Virus record (IMG/VR): IMGVR_UViG_649989948_000014 | Coordinates: 1 to 29,649 of that record | From: a virus | Taxonomy: Duplodnaviria; Heunggongvirae; Uroviricota; Caudoviricetes | Strand: one strand, 5' to 3' | Length of the DNA: 29,649 bases | In this document: positions 3,254 through 25,702 of the stretch, one piece after another | Numbering within the stretch: the first letter of the stretch is position 1 | Layout of the letters: the number at the start of each line of letters is the position of its first letter | Made by a program: the position numbers and the translations under genes | The notes under the pieces: generated by a model | Seen by the model: the letters and a program-made list of their open reading frames with translations, nothing else | What the model was told of the DNA's origin: nothing | The model's database searches: none

Positions 3254-6934
<3,681 letters not shown>

Positions 6935-19459: not shown

Positions 19460-20475
19460 AAATCCACCCCGTAAATCCAGTCAGTGTTTGTCAGGTCGAG
19501 TTTTGATTTTCCGGTTGTCACGCCAGCCTGTTGCTTGTTACGGTTGATTTCGAGTTGGGTCCACTTGTCGCGGAGTTTGGCCGGACTCAGCACGTTACCG
19601 GACCAGAAGTTGTCCTGGCATGCCCAGCGGAACAGCACGCACATGTCGCGGTGGTTACGTCCGTCACGTTCACGCATCAGGCGGATATCGTTAGCCCACC
19701 CTGCAAAATTCGGTTTTCTGGCTGAGGGCGCGATGGTCTTCACCATGTTAAACATCCACTCTGCGGCGGTCAGGTCTTCTGCTGTCCCCCACTTGCTGCC
19801 GCTCTGAATTGCAGCATCCAGTTTCTCCAAAGGAAAGTCGTTTTCTGGCTGGTCAGAGGATTCGCCAGAATTCTCGGACGAAAAAGGTTTTATATTGTCT
19901 TTTGTTAGTTTGTCTTTTGTGTTTACCTGATTCGGGTAAACGCCTTTACCTGATTTGGGTAAACTTTTCTTACCTGATTCAGGTAAATTTACCTCTTTCA
20001 GGTAAACTTTATTTTTCTTACCTGATTCGGGTAATGTTGACCATTCACTGACCACATTATTAATGCCGATATTCCGCCCACTCTGAATAAAAATCCCACG
20101 CTTTACCAGAACACTTTTTGCAGCAGAACACTTGTGCGGCAATATCCCGGTCAACTCGGAAAGTTGCTCGTTGCTCACCCAATCCAGTTTTTTATTAAAG
20201 CCATATGTTTTGCGCATGACAGCCAGGAAGACCAGAAGCTGGTGCTGTGTTAATCCGGCCAGCATCACAGCTTCCAGCAACTCATTTGCAATGCGCGTAT
20301 AACCATCATCGAGATCTGCCACGCGCGGCTCCTTTTGTGCCGCATCCGGCACTGGAAAATTGAATATCTCAGCAGTGTTTGCCATAATTCCTCCCGCAAT
20401 GAGTGTGTTACGATTTGCACCTGAAAGTCGGTTCTGTTCCAGCAGACCGGCTTTCGCCATTTCTGAACCTGTCAT
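19456..20475 (-). CDS. O: replication initiator O (start may be the internal Met near 20385)
   Basis: ORF contains MANTAEIFNFPVPDAAQKEPRVADLDDGYTRIANELLEAVMLAGLTQHQLLVFLAVMRKTYGFNK..., lambda O-like N-terminal domain and C-terminal P-interaction region; iterons inside the gene. Confidence 0.9.
   Translation of the reverse strand: MTGSEMAKAGLLEQNRLSGANRNTLIAGGIMANTAEIFNFPVPDAAQKEPRVADLDDGYTRIANELLEAVMLAGLTQHQLLVFLAVMRKTYGFNKKLDWVSNEQLSELTGILPHKCSAAKSVLVKRGIFIQSGRNIGINNVVSEWSTLPESGKKNKVYLKEVNLPESGKKSLPKSGKGVYPNQVNTKDKLTKDNIKPFSSENSGESSDQPENDFPLEKLDAAIQSGSKWGTAEDLTAAEWMFNMVKTIAPSARKPNFAGWANDIRLMRERDGRNHRDMCVLFRWACQDNFWSGNVLSPAKLRDKWTQLEINRNKQQAGVTTGKSKLDLTNTDWIYGVDL
19924..20034. repeat. replication origin iterons (four ~18-bp direct repeats) with adjacent AT-rich region (about 19880-19921)
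   Basis: Plus strand shows tacctgattcgggtaaa / tacctgatttgggtaaa / tacctgattcaggtaaa / tacctgattcgggtaa at ~23-bp spacing, each an internal palindrome, inside O, followed by aaaaggttttatattgtcttttgttagtttgtcttttgtg. Confidence 0.85.
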
Positions 20476-21011
20476 ATCGCCCCCAGCATGGTAGTAACCA
20501 TCGCCATCAATGGACCAGCCAGATCTGGGTCCACACGAAACATCGACACAATACCTTCACTAATTTCCTTCAGTTTCTGGTGGCGTGGTGCGTTGAGAAT
20601 GACAGCCTGTTTTGCCTCACTGAGTTCCTTTTCCATTTCAGCCAACCTAGCCATGAAGCTATCCTGCTCAACCAGGTAACCGCGATATTCCAGCGGTAGT
20701 ACCGCCAGAATTGCCGGGGTCAGTTCACGCACATTATTTCGGTATTTTTCAGAATCGAATTTGTTATCGAGGAAGCGGAACAGCTTCTGGCGTGCACGGC
20801 TGACATCATCAGGGAAATCGATGGTGCCGCCGCCCTGCTCCCGATACTCATTCACAATGAGTGTGGCAACGACATCCTGATTATCTACAGCCGACCAGGC
20901 GCGGACGGCATCACGGATTTTTTCGTGGCCTGGCACCTGTTTTGTTTGAGAACGATTTATCACCGCAGTCGGGCTAAATCCGCTAGTCTGTTGGTATGTA
21001 AGTGGTTGCAT
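20472..21011 (-). CDS. CII-like lysogeny regulator, long (179 aa) form (CP76-type CII family suggested)
   Basis: Occupies the cII position between cro and O; good AAGGAG-type RBS; family assignment is from memory and position only. Confidence 0.45.
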   Translation of the reverse strand: MQPLTYQQTSGFSPTAVINRSQTKQVPGHEKIRDAVRAWSAVDNQDVVATLIVNEYREQGGGTIDFPDDVSRARQKLFRFLDNKFDSEKYRNNVRELTPAILAVLPLEYRGYLVEQDSFMARLAEMEKELSEAKQAVILNAPRHQKLKEISEGIVSMFRVDPDLAGPLMAMVTTMLGAI

Positions 21012-21056
21012 AATTGACTCCTTTAGTTTGAATTGACTGTTAAGTTGATTGCTTAT

Positions 21057-21068
21057 TGTTAAAGAGCG
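21057..21068 (-). promoter_or_regulatory. boxA-like element at the nutR position
   Basis: Minus strand reads CGCTCTTTAACA between cro and the cII-like gene, close to the lambda boxA consensus CGCTCTTA; no obvious boxB hairpin seen next to it. Confidence 0.35.
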
Positions 21069-21080
21069 TGAAATGGAAAT

Positions 21081-21311
21081 TTAAGCTGCGTTCTTTTCGG
21101 TGTGTGGAAACAACTTCGGAAGATCCGGGCGAATCTGGTATGCCTTCACTACTCCACCAGTAGCCGTAACAATGCTGCCGACATGTTCAGGGGATACCTT
21201 TGCTTTGTTGTGAAGCCACTTATAGACGGCCTGCTGTGAAACTTCGCAAGCAGCGCCCAGTTTCTTTTGTGAACCAACGATATTGATCGCTGTTTTGATA
21301 GCTGGGTTCAT
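21081..21311 (-). CDS. cro: Cro-like repressor
   Basis: 76-aa ORF divergent from cI with HTH-like segment GSQKKLGAACEVSQQAVYKWL. Confidence 0.7.
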   Translation of the reverse strand: MNPAIKTAINIVGSQKKLGAACEVSQQAVYKWLHNKAKVSPEHVGSIVTATGGVVKAYQIRPDLPKLFPHTEKNAA

Positions 21312-21415: not shown

Positions 21416-22105
21416 ATGAAAACAACACTCTCAGAAAGACTTAAAGAAGCCAGATTAGCGCGAGGCCTTACACAAAAGGCGCTTGGGGATTTGGTCGGGG
21501 TTAGCCAGGCTGCTATTCAGAAAATCGAAACAGGGAAAGCTAATCAAACAACTAAAATCGTGGAGATCGCGAACGCTTTGGGTGTGCGCGCAGAATGGTT
21601 ATCTTCTGGCGTTGGAAATATGTCAGACAGTACAGTGCAACCAATACAATCAACTGTCAGCCATTCCAAATACTTCAAGATTGACGTTCTTGATATAGAA
21701 GTCAGTGCTGGGCCGGGAGTCATCAACCGTGAGTTTGTAGAAGTTCTACGCTCGGTTGAGTACTCGTTTGACGATGCTCGTCACATGTTCGATGGTAGGA
21801 AGGCGGAAAATATCCGCATCATTAACGTGCGTGGTGACAGCATGTCAGGAACGATCGAACCAGGTGATCTGCTGTTCGTTGATATCACAGTTAAATCTTT
21901 CGACGGTGATGGTATCTATGCGTTTCTGTACGACGACACAGCCCATGTAAAGCGCCTGCAAATGATGAAGAATAAGCTGCTGGTCATCTCTGATAACAAA
22001 AGCTACTCACCGTGGGACCCGATCGAGAAAGACGAGATGAACCGGGTGTTCATCTTCGGTAAGGTTATTGGGAGCATGCCGCAGACATATAGGAAGCATG
22101 GGTAG
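21416..22105 (+). CDS. cI: CI repressor (HTH plus LexA-like S24 autopeptidase domain), non-lambda immunity specificity
   Basis: ORF 21350..22105; from the internal Met MKTTLSERLKEARLARGLTQKALGDLVGVSQAAIQKIETGK... (HTH), Ala-Gly cleavage site in VSAGPG, Ser in GDSMSGT and Lys in HVKRL. Confidence 0.85.
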   Translation: MKTTLSERLKEARLARGLTQKALGDLVGVSQAAIQKIETGKANQTTKIVEIANALGVRAEWLSSGVGNMSDSTVQPIQSTVSHSKYFKIDVLDIEVSAGPGVINREFVEVLRSVEYSFDDARHMFDGRKAENIRIINVRGDSMSGTIEPGDLLFVDITVKSFDGDGIYAFLYDDTAHVKRLQMMKNKLLVISDNKSYSPWDPIEKDEMNRVFIFGKVIGSMPQTYRKHG

Positions 22106-22226
22106 TACCAATTAAAAATTATCAACTGGGCATTGTGCTCATTCAGTAAAGAACTAATTCCTATCTTTGCTCTAGGTAGTAATATTAAGCCACCGCAATA
22201 ATATCTTTACCTAACGGCGTAAGAAT

Positions 22227-22254
22227 CCCGGTCACCGTGCCGGGTTTTCTTTTG
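22227..22254 (+). terminator. intrinsic terminator downstream of cI
   Basis: CCCGG tcaccgtg CCGGG followed by TTTTCTTTTG, ~120 bp after the cI stop, where lambda carries rexA-rexB. Confidence 0.55.
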
Positions 22255-22379
22255 CCCTCCCCTCATCACACACACCGTTAAAAAACCACCATAACCTCGC
22301 TTCAGTTATCGCTATGCGATTCAAGTCACAAAATAAATCCATCCTAAATACAACCAGTTATATCTAAAACAACCAATAA

Positions 22380-22422
22380 AACAACTTTTGTTGTTGACGA
22401 TAAAACAACTATAGTTTTAAAT
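22380..22422 (+). promoter_or_regulatory. candidate pL with overlapping oL operator palindrome
   Basis: TTGACG (about 22394-22399), 17-bp spacer, TTAAAT (about 22417-22422); overlapped by the palindrome AACAAC tttt GTTGTT and followed by further ACAAC motifs; directed into the kil-gam-bet-exo-xis-int operon. Confidence 0.45.
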
Positions 22423-22699
22423 AAGTTCATCGCAACAACACAACGATACGGCAACTACCTGATTCACCGTTGCGATGACCGCTTAGATCCGCAGTTTGAA
22501 TTTCAGCAGGCTTCGGGGAGTGCGAGGGGTGAAACGGACGCGTGAACGTCGGTGTGACCAGCTGAAATTAACTCAACATTTCATACCTTAGTCGCTTCAA
22601 CGAGGCGGCTTAGTTATGACAACCGGCGGCCATCCACCGCCTGAATACGCGCAGAAGTCTTTATATGTTCAGCAGCCCAGCTTACGGGCAGGAGTTTTT

Positions 22700-22906
22700 A
22701 TGGTTCATCAACATTACGGAACGCAGACCGTTAATCGAGGTGCGGTCATGCCAGGAATGCTGGTCAAACACAAAGATGGTACCTGGACTGCATCAGCTAA
22801 TTTACGCGGACGGCTTTATCTGCATCGCGGCATCGAGCGCACTTATACCCGTGATTTGCTCGTGGAAGTTTTTCTCGACGGACGCGGTAACGGCCTGAAT
22901 CACTAA
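22700..22906 (+). CDS. Kil-like small protein (possible host division inhibitor, KilR-like)
   Basis: 68-aa ORF with strong RBS (gcaggagtttttATG): MVHQHYGTQTVNRGAVMPGMLVKHKDGTWTASANLRGRLYLHRGIERTYTRDLLVEVFLDGRGNGLNH, immediately upstream of gam as kil is in lambda; family from memory only. Confidence 0.4.
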   Translation: MVHQHYGTQTVNRGAVMPGMLVKHKDGTWTASANLRGRLYLHRGIERTYTRDLLVEVFLDGRGNGLNH

Positions 22907-24747: not shown

Positions 24748-24926
24748 AGCATCCTCACGATAATATCCGGGTAGGCACGATCACTTTCGTCTACTCCGTT
24801 ACGAAGCGAGGCTGGGTATTTCCCGGCCTTTCTGTTATCCGAAATCCCCTGAAAGCACAGCGGCTGGCTGAGGAGATAAATAATAAACGGGGAGCTGTAT
24901 GCACAAAGCATCTCCCGTTGAGTTAA
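24738..24926 (+). CDS. lambda orf60a-like small protein
   Basis: 62-aa [65 protein letters not shown], overlapping the exo stop as in lambda. Confidence 0.6.
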
Positions 24927-25382: not shown

Positions 25383-25480
25383 ACATGAAAAGCAAAATCA
25401 TCAGGGAGCTACAGGCTCCTTTTTTATTATTCGCATTCACCCTCAAGCGTATTAACCAACAATTCAGGGATTAATAGAAG

Positions 25481-25702
25481 ATGGCAGACATCATTGATTC
25501 AGCATCAGAAATTGAAGAATTACAGCGCAACACAGCAATAAAAATGCGCCGCCTGAACCACCAGGCTATATCTGCCACTCATTGTTGTGAGTGTGGCGAT
25601 CCGATAGATGAACGAAGACGCCTGGTCGTTCAGGGTTGTCGGACTTGTGCAAGTTGCCAGGAGGATCTGGAGCTTATCAGTAAACAGAGAGGTTCGAAGT
25701 GA
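25481..25702 (+). CDS. TraR/DksA-family C4 zinc-finger protein (lambda Orf73-like)
   Basis: 73-aa ORF MADIIDSASEIEELQRNTAIKMRRLNHQAISATHCCECGDPIDERRRLVVQGCRTCASCQEDLELI with CxxC...CxxC zinc finger. Confidence 0.8.
   Translation: MADIIDSASEIEELQRNTAIKMRRLNHQAISATHCCECGDPIDERRRLVVQGCRTCASCQEDLELISKQRGSK

Follow-up and report, generated by a model that had tools for sequence, protein, structure and literature searches.

A candidate antitermination RNA cassette in the early-left leader of lambdoid prophages without N

How a lambdoid phage without an N protein carries transcription through its early operons is the question raised by IMG/VR record IMGVR_UViG_649989948_000014, of which positions 1 to 29,649 were analyzed (hereafter the window, meaning this whole stretch of 29,649 nucleotides (nt)). 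The window is a DLP12/PA-2-like lambdoid prophage in inverted orientation relative to the lambda map, and the plaque-forming phage PhiR34_1 is 99.7% identical to it across the region studied. An untranslated leader of approximately 270 nt without a credible gene follows the early-left promoter pL and precedes the genes for Kil, Gam, Bet, and Exo. The put RNAs of phage HK022 bring about cis-acting, factor-independent processive antitermination that depends on the β′ zinc-binding domain of RNA polymerase, and to our knowledge the read-through of early terminators in N-less lambdoid phages is known in detail only for put RNA of the HK022 type. A first-pass annotation of the window suggested that an RNA-based or boxA-only mechanism takes the place of N. 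The comparative sequence data presented here partly support a leader RNA element standing in for N; they point to a 96-nt cassette, which we call modA, as a candidate cis-acting antitermination RNA whose sequence is unrelated to that of put, and we give this reading a probability of roughly 0.4.

The absence of N, cIII, and rexAB, which the first-pass annotation had claimed, was confirmed by tblastn, by the content of open reading frames (ORFs), and by the annotation of the near-identical PhiR34_1, in which no N is annotated. The tblastn searches of the window with lambda N, P22 gp24, HK022 Nun, phi80 N, cIII, lambda Kil, and RexA/B returned nothing credible, so that the search for N and Nun proteins proposed at the outset was negative. 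PHROGs and Pfam detected no N-family protein at the start of the pL operon, and the longest ORF contained between pL and kil has 31 amino acids (aa). The description of a terminator behind cI, followed by no large ORF until kil, was likewise correct; on the plus strand, the interval 22106–22700 holds only this 31-aa ORF with a TTG start and two frames extending into kil (22616–22906 and 22665–22898).

When the leader was used as a sequence profile, a diverged counterpart of its central part, modA, turned up in a second lineage, represented by the viral locus L192, where it stands behind a 57-nt 5′ leader common to phi80, HK225, KO-TP1, L108, and HK639. This shared 5′ leader (...GAGCGAAGUUAGNCAGCGGCG) was used as the anchor for a scan of viral contigs, and the next element at each of the 123 loci was sorted by sequence patterns. 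The shared leader was followed by an exact boxA of the nutL type at 51 loci, by a put-type element at 30, and by modA at 2; the other 40 were not classified by the patterns, and several boxA variants and approximately eight put variants were found among them. To none of the loci did these patterns assign modA together with put or with boxA. A targeted scan has brought the modA loci to 15, with at least six promoter/operator types that include phi80 pL. At one viral-contig locus of the first scan, a sequence resembling stem I of put, GGCGAACGGCGCACC, directly precedes a consensus boxA, GCTCTTTAACAA; this is apparently a put/nut hybrid leader.

The boundaries of the cassette were given by HK639, for which GenBank lists a feature named "putL-like antiterminator RNA" (67 bits with the put model described below). 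HK639 was reportedly described as an N-less put phage by King et al. 2011 (J Bacteriol 193:5784). HK639 and the L192-type loci L192 and L321 have identical flanks, of 53 nt on the 5′ side and approximately 55 nt on the 3′ side, and the middle is a put-like element of approximately 78 nt in the former versus modA of approximately 97 nt in the latter. Because only the middle differs, modA is a sharply bounded cassette in the slot of known early antitermination signals. At two further loci, L108 and L111, a genuine putL (83–87 bits) lies directly upstream of module B, the last element of the leader, which is the position of modA in the window. Compared with the lambda N/nut system, modA occupies the nutL position, and the same slot in phi80, HK225, and KO-TP1 contains a boxA (GCUUUUUAACAA) followed by N-type genes. 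The window differs from that system in having no N-like gene, neither boxA nor boxB in the pL leader, and an arginine-rich mini-ORF that is not conserved.

A 261-nt query covering pL, the leader, and module B (22380–22640) had matches in 2227 of 5426 complete Escherichia coli genomes, with at least 80% query cover in 2033, and no annotation was present beneath the match among the E. coli genome records listed. A 19-mer from modA gave only chance matches, to unrelated high-GC genomes, in a collection of species-representative genomes; modA is therefore absent from that collection.

The first-pass annotation proposed an Infernal comparison of the leader with HK022 putL and putR, and this comparison was negative. 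A covariance model of put (R1) was built from 17 putL/putR variants drawn from variants in 85 viral contigs; it gave 99 bits for HK022 putL, 77 for HK022 putR, 83–87 for L108, L101, and L111, and 67 for HK639. The model found no match in the window leader (22430–22700) or in modA of the L192-type loci L192, L321, and L324. This result indicates that the leader does not belong to the put family. The best match of the model in the window (15 bits, E ~0.09) falls within the O gene, on the strand of the pR transcript (20353–20290, −); the conserved put loops are missing from it, and it was judged a chance match.

Although unrelated by the covariance model, modA resembles the put RNAs of HK022 and HK639 in lying close to the promoter in the pL transcript of a lambdoid phage without N (approximately +46 to +141), in being a discrete cassette of approximately 75–100 nt, and in its two predicted adjoining stem domains with conserved unpaired purine-rich nucleotides. 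It also shares its slot, with identical sequences on both sides, with the putL-like element of HK639, and terminators lie downstream of it in the sister L192-type lineage. By contrast, it matches neither in sequence nor in structure the covariance model with which real puts reach 67–99 bits; it lacks the conserved put motifs (AACGGCS in the loop of stem I and GUCGG...CAAUG in stem II); its length is 96 nt versus approximately 75 nt, with a different domain architecture; and it has no second copy in the right operon, unlike putL/putR of HK022. Some genuine put phages (L108) show only putL within the stretch examined.

The modA cores of the window type and the L192 type aligned with zero gaps. 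In the RNAalifold consensus, unlike in the minimum free energy (MFE) structure of the single sequence, a 5′ domain of helices P1, P2, and P3 (loop AAUUUCAG) abuts a 3′ domain of helices P4 and P5. The consensus was paired in 99.4% of alignment cells and contained three compensatory pairs (AU to CG, GC to AU, and AU to GC), whereas slid controls reached at most 40% with zero double changes. Two common window-type polymorphisms, T22495C (U-G to C-G) and C22514T (G-C to G-U), are compatible with the fold. Among five sequences, the consensus fold was the MFE structure of the commonest window-type variant and of L192, and it was within 0.2–1.6 kcal/mol of the MFE in the others. Two purine-rich single strands, CGGGGAGUGCGAGGGGUG and GUGUGACC, are invariant. 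The MFE structure of the single sequence (stem 22499–22507/22561–22569 and hairpin 22511–22527) was rejected in favor of the alignment-based fold; it showed no compensatory changes, and its small hairpin was broken in 11 of 18 variants.

An intrinsic terminator was found just before module B at 71 of 81 loci that are not of the window type but at none of 49 window-type loci, where modA adjoins module B. Seven L192-type loci extend as far as module B; an intrinsic terminator separates it from modA in every one of them, and no boxA is present in any. L321, one of the L192-type loci, has phi80 immunity, and phi80 N was not found in it. Two cysteine-rich ORFs of 65 and 219 aa lie between modA and the tL1-type terminator of L321 (3705–3902 and 3927–4586, +), with a weak zinc-ribbon match only, and are candidates for an early function. 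In L324, an L192-like locus of type b, modA is directly followed by a 3-codon mini-ORF and then a small hairpin (GCGG-ACAGG-CCGC), and a 16-aa arginine-rich ORF with a good Shine-Dalgarno sequence (MPVKQRERQTRTGYERR; 4836–4886, +) lies in the noncoding stretch of approximately 400 nt after modA. These features of L324 are possibly another N-like or nut-like system.

Taken together, the swap of the cassette, its mutual exclusivity with put and boxA, the terminators downstream of it, and the covariation make an antitermination role of modA the best single hypothesis. The pL leader is composed of three RNA modules, namely, the 5′ stem-loop, modA, and module B before kil, and in this hypothesis nascent modA would fold into its two adjoining stem domains. 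The folded RNA would then render its own RNA polymerase resistant to downstream terminators, as put of HK022 and HK639 does, and we infer that it would act on the polymerase without a phage protein. The terminators to be overcome would be those after exo in the window phage and those of the tL1 type in its relatives. modA would thus be like put in position and proposed role and unrelated to it in sequence. A wider form of this hypothesis, in which modA founds a family of factor-independent, cis-acting processive antiterminators that is structurally unrelated to put, is interchangeable with putL and nutL, and is present in prophages of approximately 40% of sequenced E. coli, is possible but somewhat unlikely.

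Several points weigh against an antitermination role. Window-type phages show no terminator between modA and exo, and the lack of a tL1-type terminator before module B at 49 of 49 modA-adjacent loci fits a plain loss of N and tL1 equally well. The mosaic boundaries of lambdoid genomes can place unrelated sequences in one slot, and the small ORFs downstream of modA in L192-type phages (the cysteine-rich ORFs of L321 and the 16-aa arginine-rich ORF of L324) could encode a protein partner. No second copy of the leader or modA was found in the window or in the 15 L192-type loci; with a single copy and no counterpart in the pR operon, modA cannot explain how transcription reaches Q. The covariation represents just two or three independent events because only two lineages are available, and the fold z-scores of modA are unremarkable (−0.14 and −1.14), although genuine put also scores approximately zero.

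Some of these points are shared by an explanation without any antitermination, according to which N and tL1 were lost in an ancestor, the leader is an ordinary 5′ untranslated region, and modA is a passenger or an unrelated regulator. The 5′ stem-loop would then serve mRNA stability, and module B would regulate the toxic kil at the level of translation or in a Rho-linked manner. This explanation accords with the 49 modA-adjacent loci that lack the terminator found at 71 of the 81 others and with the absence of an intrinsic terminator from pL to exo in the window. It also accords with module B, the only part of the leader whose fold z-score is significant (−2.87); this element has strong covariation and occurs in the N-encoding phi80, so that it is unrelated to a replacement of N, and C-rich flanks (C/G 2.3–2.5) surround the G-rich core of the leader, like the rut sites around boxB in lambda tR1. 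However, an ordinary leader leaves unexplained both the sharply bounded 96-nt modA with its compensatory changes and the exact swap of modA, putL, and boxA between identical flanks, and it gives no account of read-through at the terminator before module B in L192-type phages without boxA and, in L321, without an identifiable N. We regard this explanation as possible but doubtful.

A third explanation holds that modA is a nut-like recognition site for a trans-acting phage or host factor rather than a self-sufficient RNA. Sharing its slot with boxA and nutL would suit such a site, the invariant purine-rich strands CGGGGAGUGCGAGGGGUG and GUGUGACC are of a kind recognized by proteins, and uncharacterized small ORFs lie just downstream in L192-type phages. 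A common phage partner is not apparent, however, because the genes downstream of modA differ among the L192-type (a), the L192-type (b), and the window type, in which kil follows almost directly, and the window has no N-like gene. An action of modA through such a factor is improbable.

The 31-aa ORF in the leader offers a protein-based alternative, in which a leader-encoded, N-like, arginine-rich peptide is the antiterminator. The first-pass annotation had found no arginine-rich ORF; one exists, but it is not conserved. Its KRTRERR motif recalls the N-terminal arginine-rich motifs of N proteins, and 5 of 12 substitutions within the window-type lineage are synonymous. Against this, its TTG start has no Shine-Dalgarno sequence, it has no family match, and 31 aa are too short for the NusA- and RNA polymerase-binding regions of N. 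One variant has a 1-nt insertion inside the ORF, the stop codon reads CAG in most relatives, and in the L192-type lineage two stops interrupt the frame, a UGA at codon 6 (AGG UGA) and a UAA behind the GUG. There is also no boxB-like hairpin at the nutR position with which a small N peptide could pair. The closed frame in the L192-type, the indel, and the missing Shine-Dalgarno sequence contradict a mini-N; we judge the ORF to be noncoding, and an antiterminator peptide encoded by it is very improbable.

The boxA-like site without boxB that was noticed at the nutR position proved to be real. No sequence in the 29.6-kb window other than GCTCTTTAACAA at 21056–21067 (−) fits the 12-nt boxA consensus (GCUCUUUAACAA) exactly; this site lies 13 nt past cro on the pR transcript, and no hairpin or boxB follows it. 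The pL leader contains neither boxA nor boxB, and nut sites are not present in both early transcripts. The segment with boxA was found in six phages of one immunity type, all 100% identical there. Phage Perceval has the same pL leader as the window but lacks the boxA, and a hairpin (GCCGC-CUAAUCU-GCGGC; L236 3014–3037, +) replaces it in the spacer between cro and cII. Because the boxA is limited to one immunity type and is absent from Perceval, it stands apart as a property of the pR transcript and is not what replaces N in the group; it probably recruits NusB/NusE on that transcript.

These data also bear on the proposal that rrn-like, boxA-only antitermination is the general substitute for N in this phage. 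A perfect consensus boxA at the nutR-equivalent position of the pR transcript speaks for it, and the rrn boxA together with NusB/E/A/G and SuhB is known to suppress Rho-dependent termination. The window resembles the rrn operons (NusB/NusE/NusA/NusG/SuhB) only in this exact match to the 12-nt consensus on the pR transcript; it differs in having a single site, in one immunity type, without boxC or spacer context, and outside the pL leader. In addition, rrn-type complexes work mainly against Rho and not against intrinsic terminators. With a boxA-less pL leader, a segment restricted to six phages, and Perceval sharing the leader without the boxA, the boxA-only mechanism does not apply generally to these N-less phages and is a quite improbable substitute for N.

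Module B, for which no second copy was detected in the window, consists of two hairpins. In the first, UCAUA-CC-[9-bp variable stem]-GUUAUGA, UCAUA pairs with UAUGA and buries the AUG at 22616; the 3′ part (ACAACC-GGCGG-CCAUCCA-CCGCC) is invariant. Across 36 distinct sequences, 97.8% of cells were paired and seven pairs had double changes, whereas slid controls reached at most 52%, and the G-U pairs fit only plus-strand RNA. Module B was found in more than 120 viral contigs and in phi80, HK225, Klebsiella KO-TP1, and Enterobacter ENT1, and its range covers lambdoid phages of Escherichia, Klebsiella, and Enterobacter. In phi80, it lies immediately behind the N gene and its terminator; its presence in this N-encoding phage rules it out as a substitute for N, and its most likely role is post-transcriptional control of the genes behind it. 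The AUG at 22616 opens an upstream ORF (uORF), MTTGGHPPP..., which varies in its tail and in its length (from 16 aa to more than 200 aa); in the window, this uORF runs in frame into Kil. Leader attenuators of the mgtL/mgtP type with proline codons resemble module B in its AUG buried in a hairpin, its three consecutive proline codons, and the toxic gene downstream. Module B differs from them in having no Shine-Dalgarno sequence, an unconserved peptide tail, and conservation at the nucleotide level that includes synonymous positions. In HK022, a homologue of the AUG-burying hairpin (hairpin 3; CAUAAC...GUUAUG; L001 6500–6440, −) was observed right after a terminator downstream of nun/IS903, and the second hairpin is missing there. 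Its AUG opens a 9-codon uORF, the UGA of which overlaps the AUG of the next gene.

The first-pass description of a GC-rich leader with several inverted repeats holds in part. Both quoted repeats are present, and the center of the leader is G-rich (approximately 60–65% G+C) with C-rich, G-poor stretches (C/G 2.3–2.5) on both sides; the fold z-scores of the leader (−1.06 and −1.29), however, are not significant, and only 22575–22660 stands out (−2.87). Since genuine putL and putR also have z-scores of approximately zero, the z-score does not discriminate. The long "cagc...gctg" stem among the quoted repeats showed no compensatory change, with an invariant 7-bp core and wobble-compatible changes only, and the comparative data support another fold; this stem might represent an alternative conformer or else a pseudoknot of loop and tail. 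The 5′-terminal stem-loop was paired in 99.4% of cells over 18 variants, even in a variant with a replaced loop, with wobble changes only and zero double changes, and it is probably a stabilizer of the mRNA 5′ end. No Rfam model reached its gathering score in the leader, and at E up to 10 only noise, such as matches to miRNA and CRISPR models, was returned. The known prophage small RNAs (sRNAs) Pas, AgvB, and AsxR map near Q and pR′ and not to the leader. The leader as a whole was not accepted as a homologue of the phi80/HK225 pL leader, as the local alignment score equaled that of shuffled sequences and only the first ~19 nt are alike.

The features of the window are listed in Table 1. The placement of pL is deduced by analogy with pR (TTGACT-17-TAATCT), and a consensus promoter scan of the window did not pick up pL. 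Operators of the AAAACAAC type overlap pL, and homology among phages with differing operators and immunity resumes exactly at ~22429–22430, the inferred pL start. Upstream, between the cI terminator and the left operator, a block of ~100 nt (22255–22345, +; ..CCTCATCACACA.ACCGTT.AAAAAACCACCA...CTTCAGTTATCGCTATGCGAT.CAAGTCACAAAAT) is near-invariant despite differing operators. Kil most likely starts at ATG 22700, preceded by GGAG, and the longer Kil frame is disrupted because PhiR30_1 has a 1-nt insertion just 5′ of this ATG. A single ORF fusing the leader to Kil was rejected on account of a TAG in the window and PhiR70_1 and a frameshift in PhiR30_1. The records of Perceval (L009 1758–2177) and PhiR47_2 (L005 2877–3263) contain a "Kil" of 128–139 aa whose ORF is stretched upstream through module B and modA; this is probably an annotation artifact, as relatives show stops or frameshifts in the extension. 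Both terminator-like sites of the pL operon lie upstream of a TraR-like gene, a xis-like gene, and int (positions mapped from PhiR34_1). The TraR/DksA-like ORF, with a C4 zinc finger and 73 aa, lies in the pL operon at 25481–25702 (+), downstream of the second site; proteins of the TraR/DksA family bind the secondary channel of RNA polymerase. The Hfq-binding sRNA isrC (Rfam RF01387, 141 bits) was found at 1–121 (−), cut by the window edge.

Table 1. Features of the early region and the pL leader; positions refer to the window unless a locus is named.
Feature	Position	Strand	Basis or remark
modA core, 96-nt cassette, candidate cis-acting antitermination RNA	22474..22569	+	gapless alignment with L192-type; swaps with putL or boxA
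modA 5′-domain helices (predicted)	P1 22480-82/22522-24; P2 22489-91/22514-16; P3 22493-98/22507-12	+	RNAalifold
modA 3′-domain helices (predicted)	P4 22525-26/22562-63, 22528-30/22557-59; P5 22534-35,22537-39/22548-50,22552-53	+	RNAalifold
5′-terminal stem-loop	22428..22477	+	stem CAUCGCAAC/GUUGCGAUG (22428-36 with 22469-77), 32-nt C-rich loop
Module B, conserved hairpin and invariant hairpin	22580..22642	+	model R2, 90 bits; single copy in window
Module B copies	L003 3002-3062; L004 3002-3064; L011 2502-2564; L012 2499-2561		
Arginine-rich 31-aa ORF	22496..22591	+	..GVKRTRERRCDQL..; TTG start; no Shine-Dalgarno sequence; no PHROG/Pfam match
rrn-type boxA, pR transcript, between cro and YdaT/CII-like gene	21056..21068	−	CGCUCUUUAACAA
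pL: −35 TTGACG 22394-22399, 17-nt spacer, −10 TTAAAT 22417-22422, start ~22429	22394..22429	+	read from sequence
cI-type repressor (HTH_3 and Peptidase_S24)	21416..22105	+	Pfam; cI also in PhiR34_1 annotation
Intrinsic terminator closing cI transcript	22227..22254 (hairpin 22227-22244 and T-run)	+	CCCGGTCACCGTGCCGGG then TTTTCTTTTG; kept in 6 phages
Kil (FtsZ inhibitor family, phi80/P22 type)	22700..22906	+	phrog_294, E 1.3e-37
Gam	after Kil	+	Pfam match
Bet, exonuclease ORFs	after Gam	+	PhiR34_1 annotation
Intrinsic-terminator-like site, first downstream in pL operon, after exo	24808..24840	+	consensus scan only
Strong intrinsic-terminator-like site, pL operon	25403..25431	+	AGGGAGCTACAGGCTCCTT then TTTTATTATT
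Cro analogue (YdaS family)	21081..21311	−	Pfam YdaS_toxin, E 4e-17
CII-position gene (YdaT family)	20472..21011	−	phrog_163

N-less lambdoid phages and put RNAs are already known from HK022 and HK639. King et al. 2011 (HK639) appears as reference 31 in PMC9378689, and authors who annotate other N-less phages routinely speculate about put-like mechanisms (e.g., PMC12315714). A full-text literature search with subsequences of the leader found no paper containing them. Should modA prove functional, it would add a new family, in sequence and in structure, to a kind of element that is already known. Whatever modA does, module B, an RNA motif with covariation support for which Rfam has no entry, deserves a description in the style of that database. 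If modA is indeed another RNA, unrelated to put, by which RNA polymerase is reprogrammed, it would provide a new handle on the control of elongation by nascent RNA and a compact building block for the synthetic control of read-through. It would also account for how early genes are expressed in E. coli prophages of a very common class, to which the inducible PhiR34_1 and Perceval belong.

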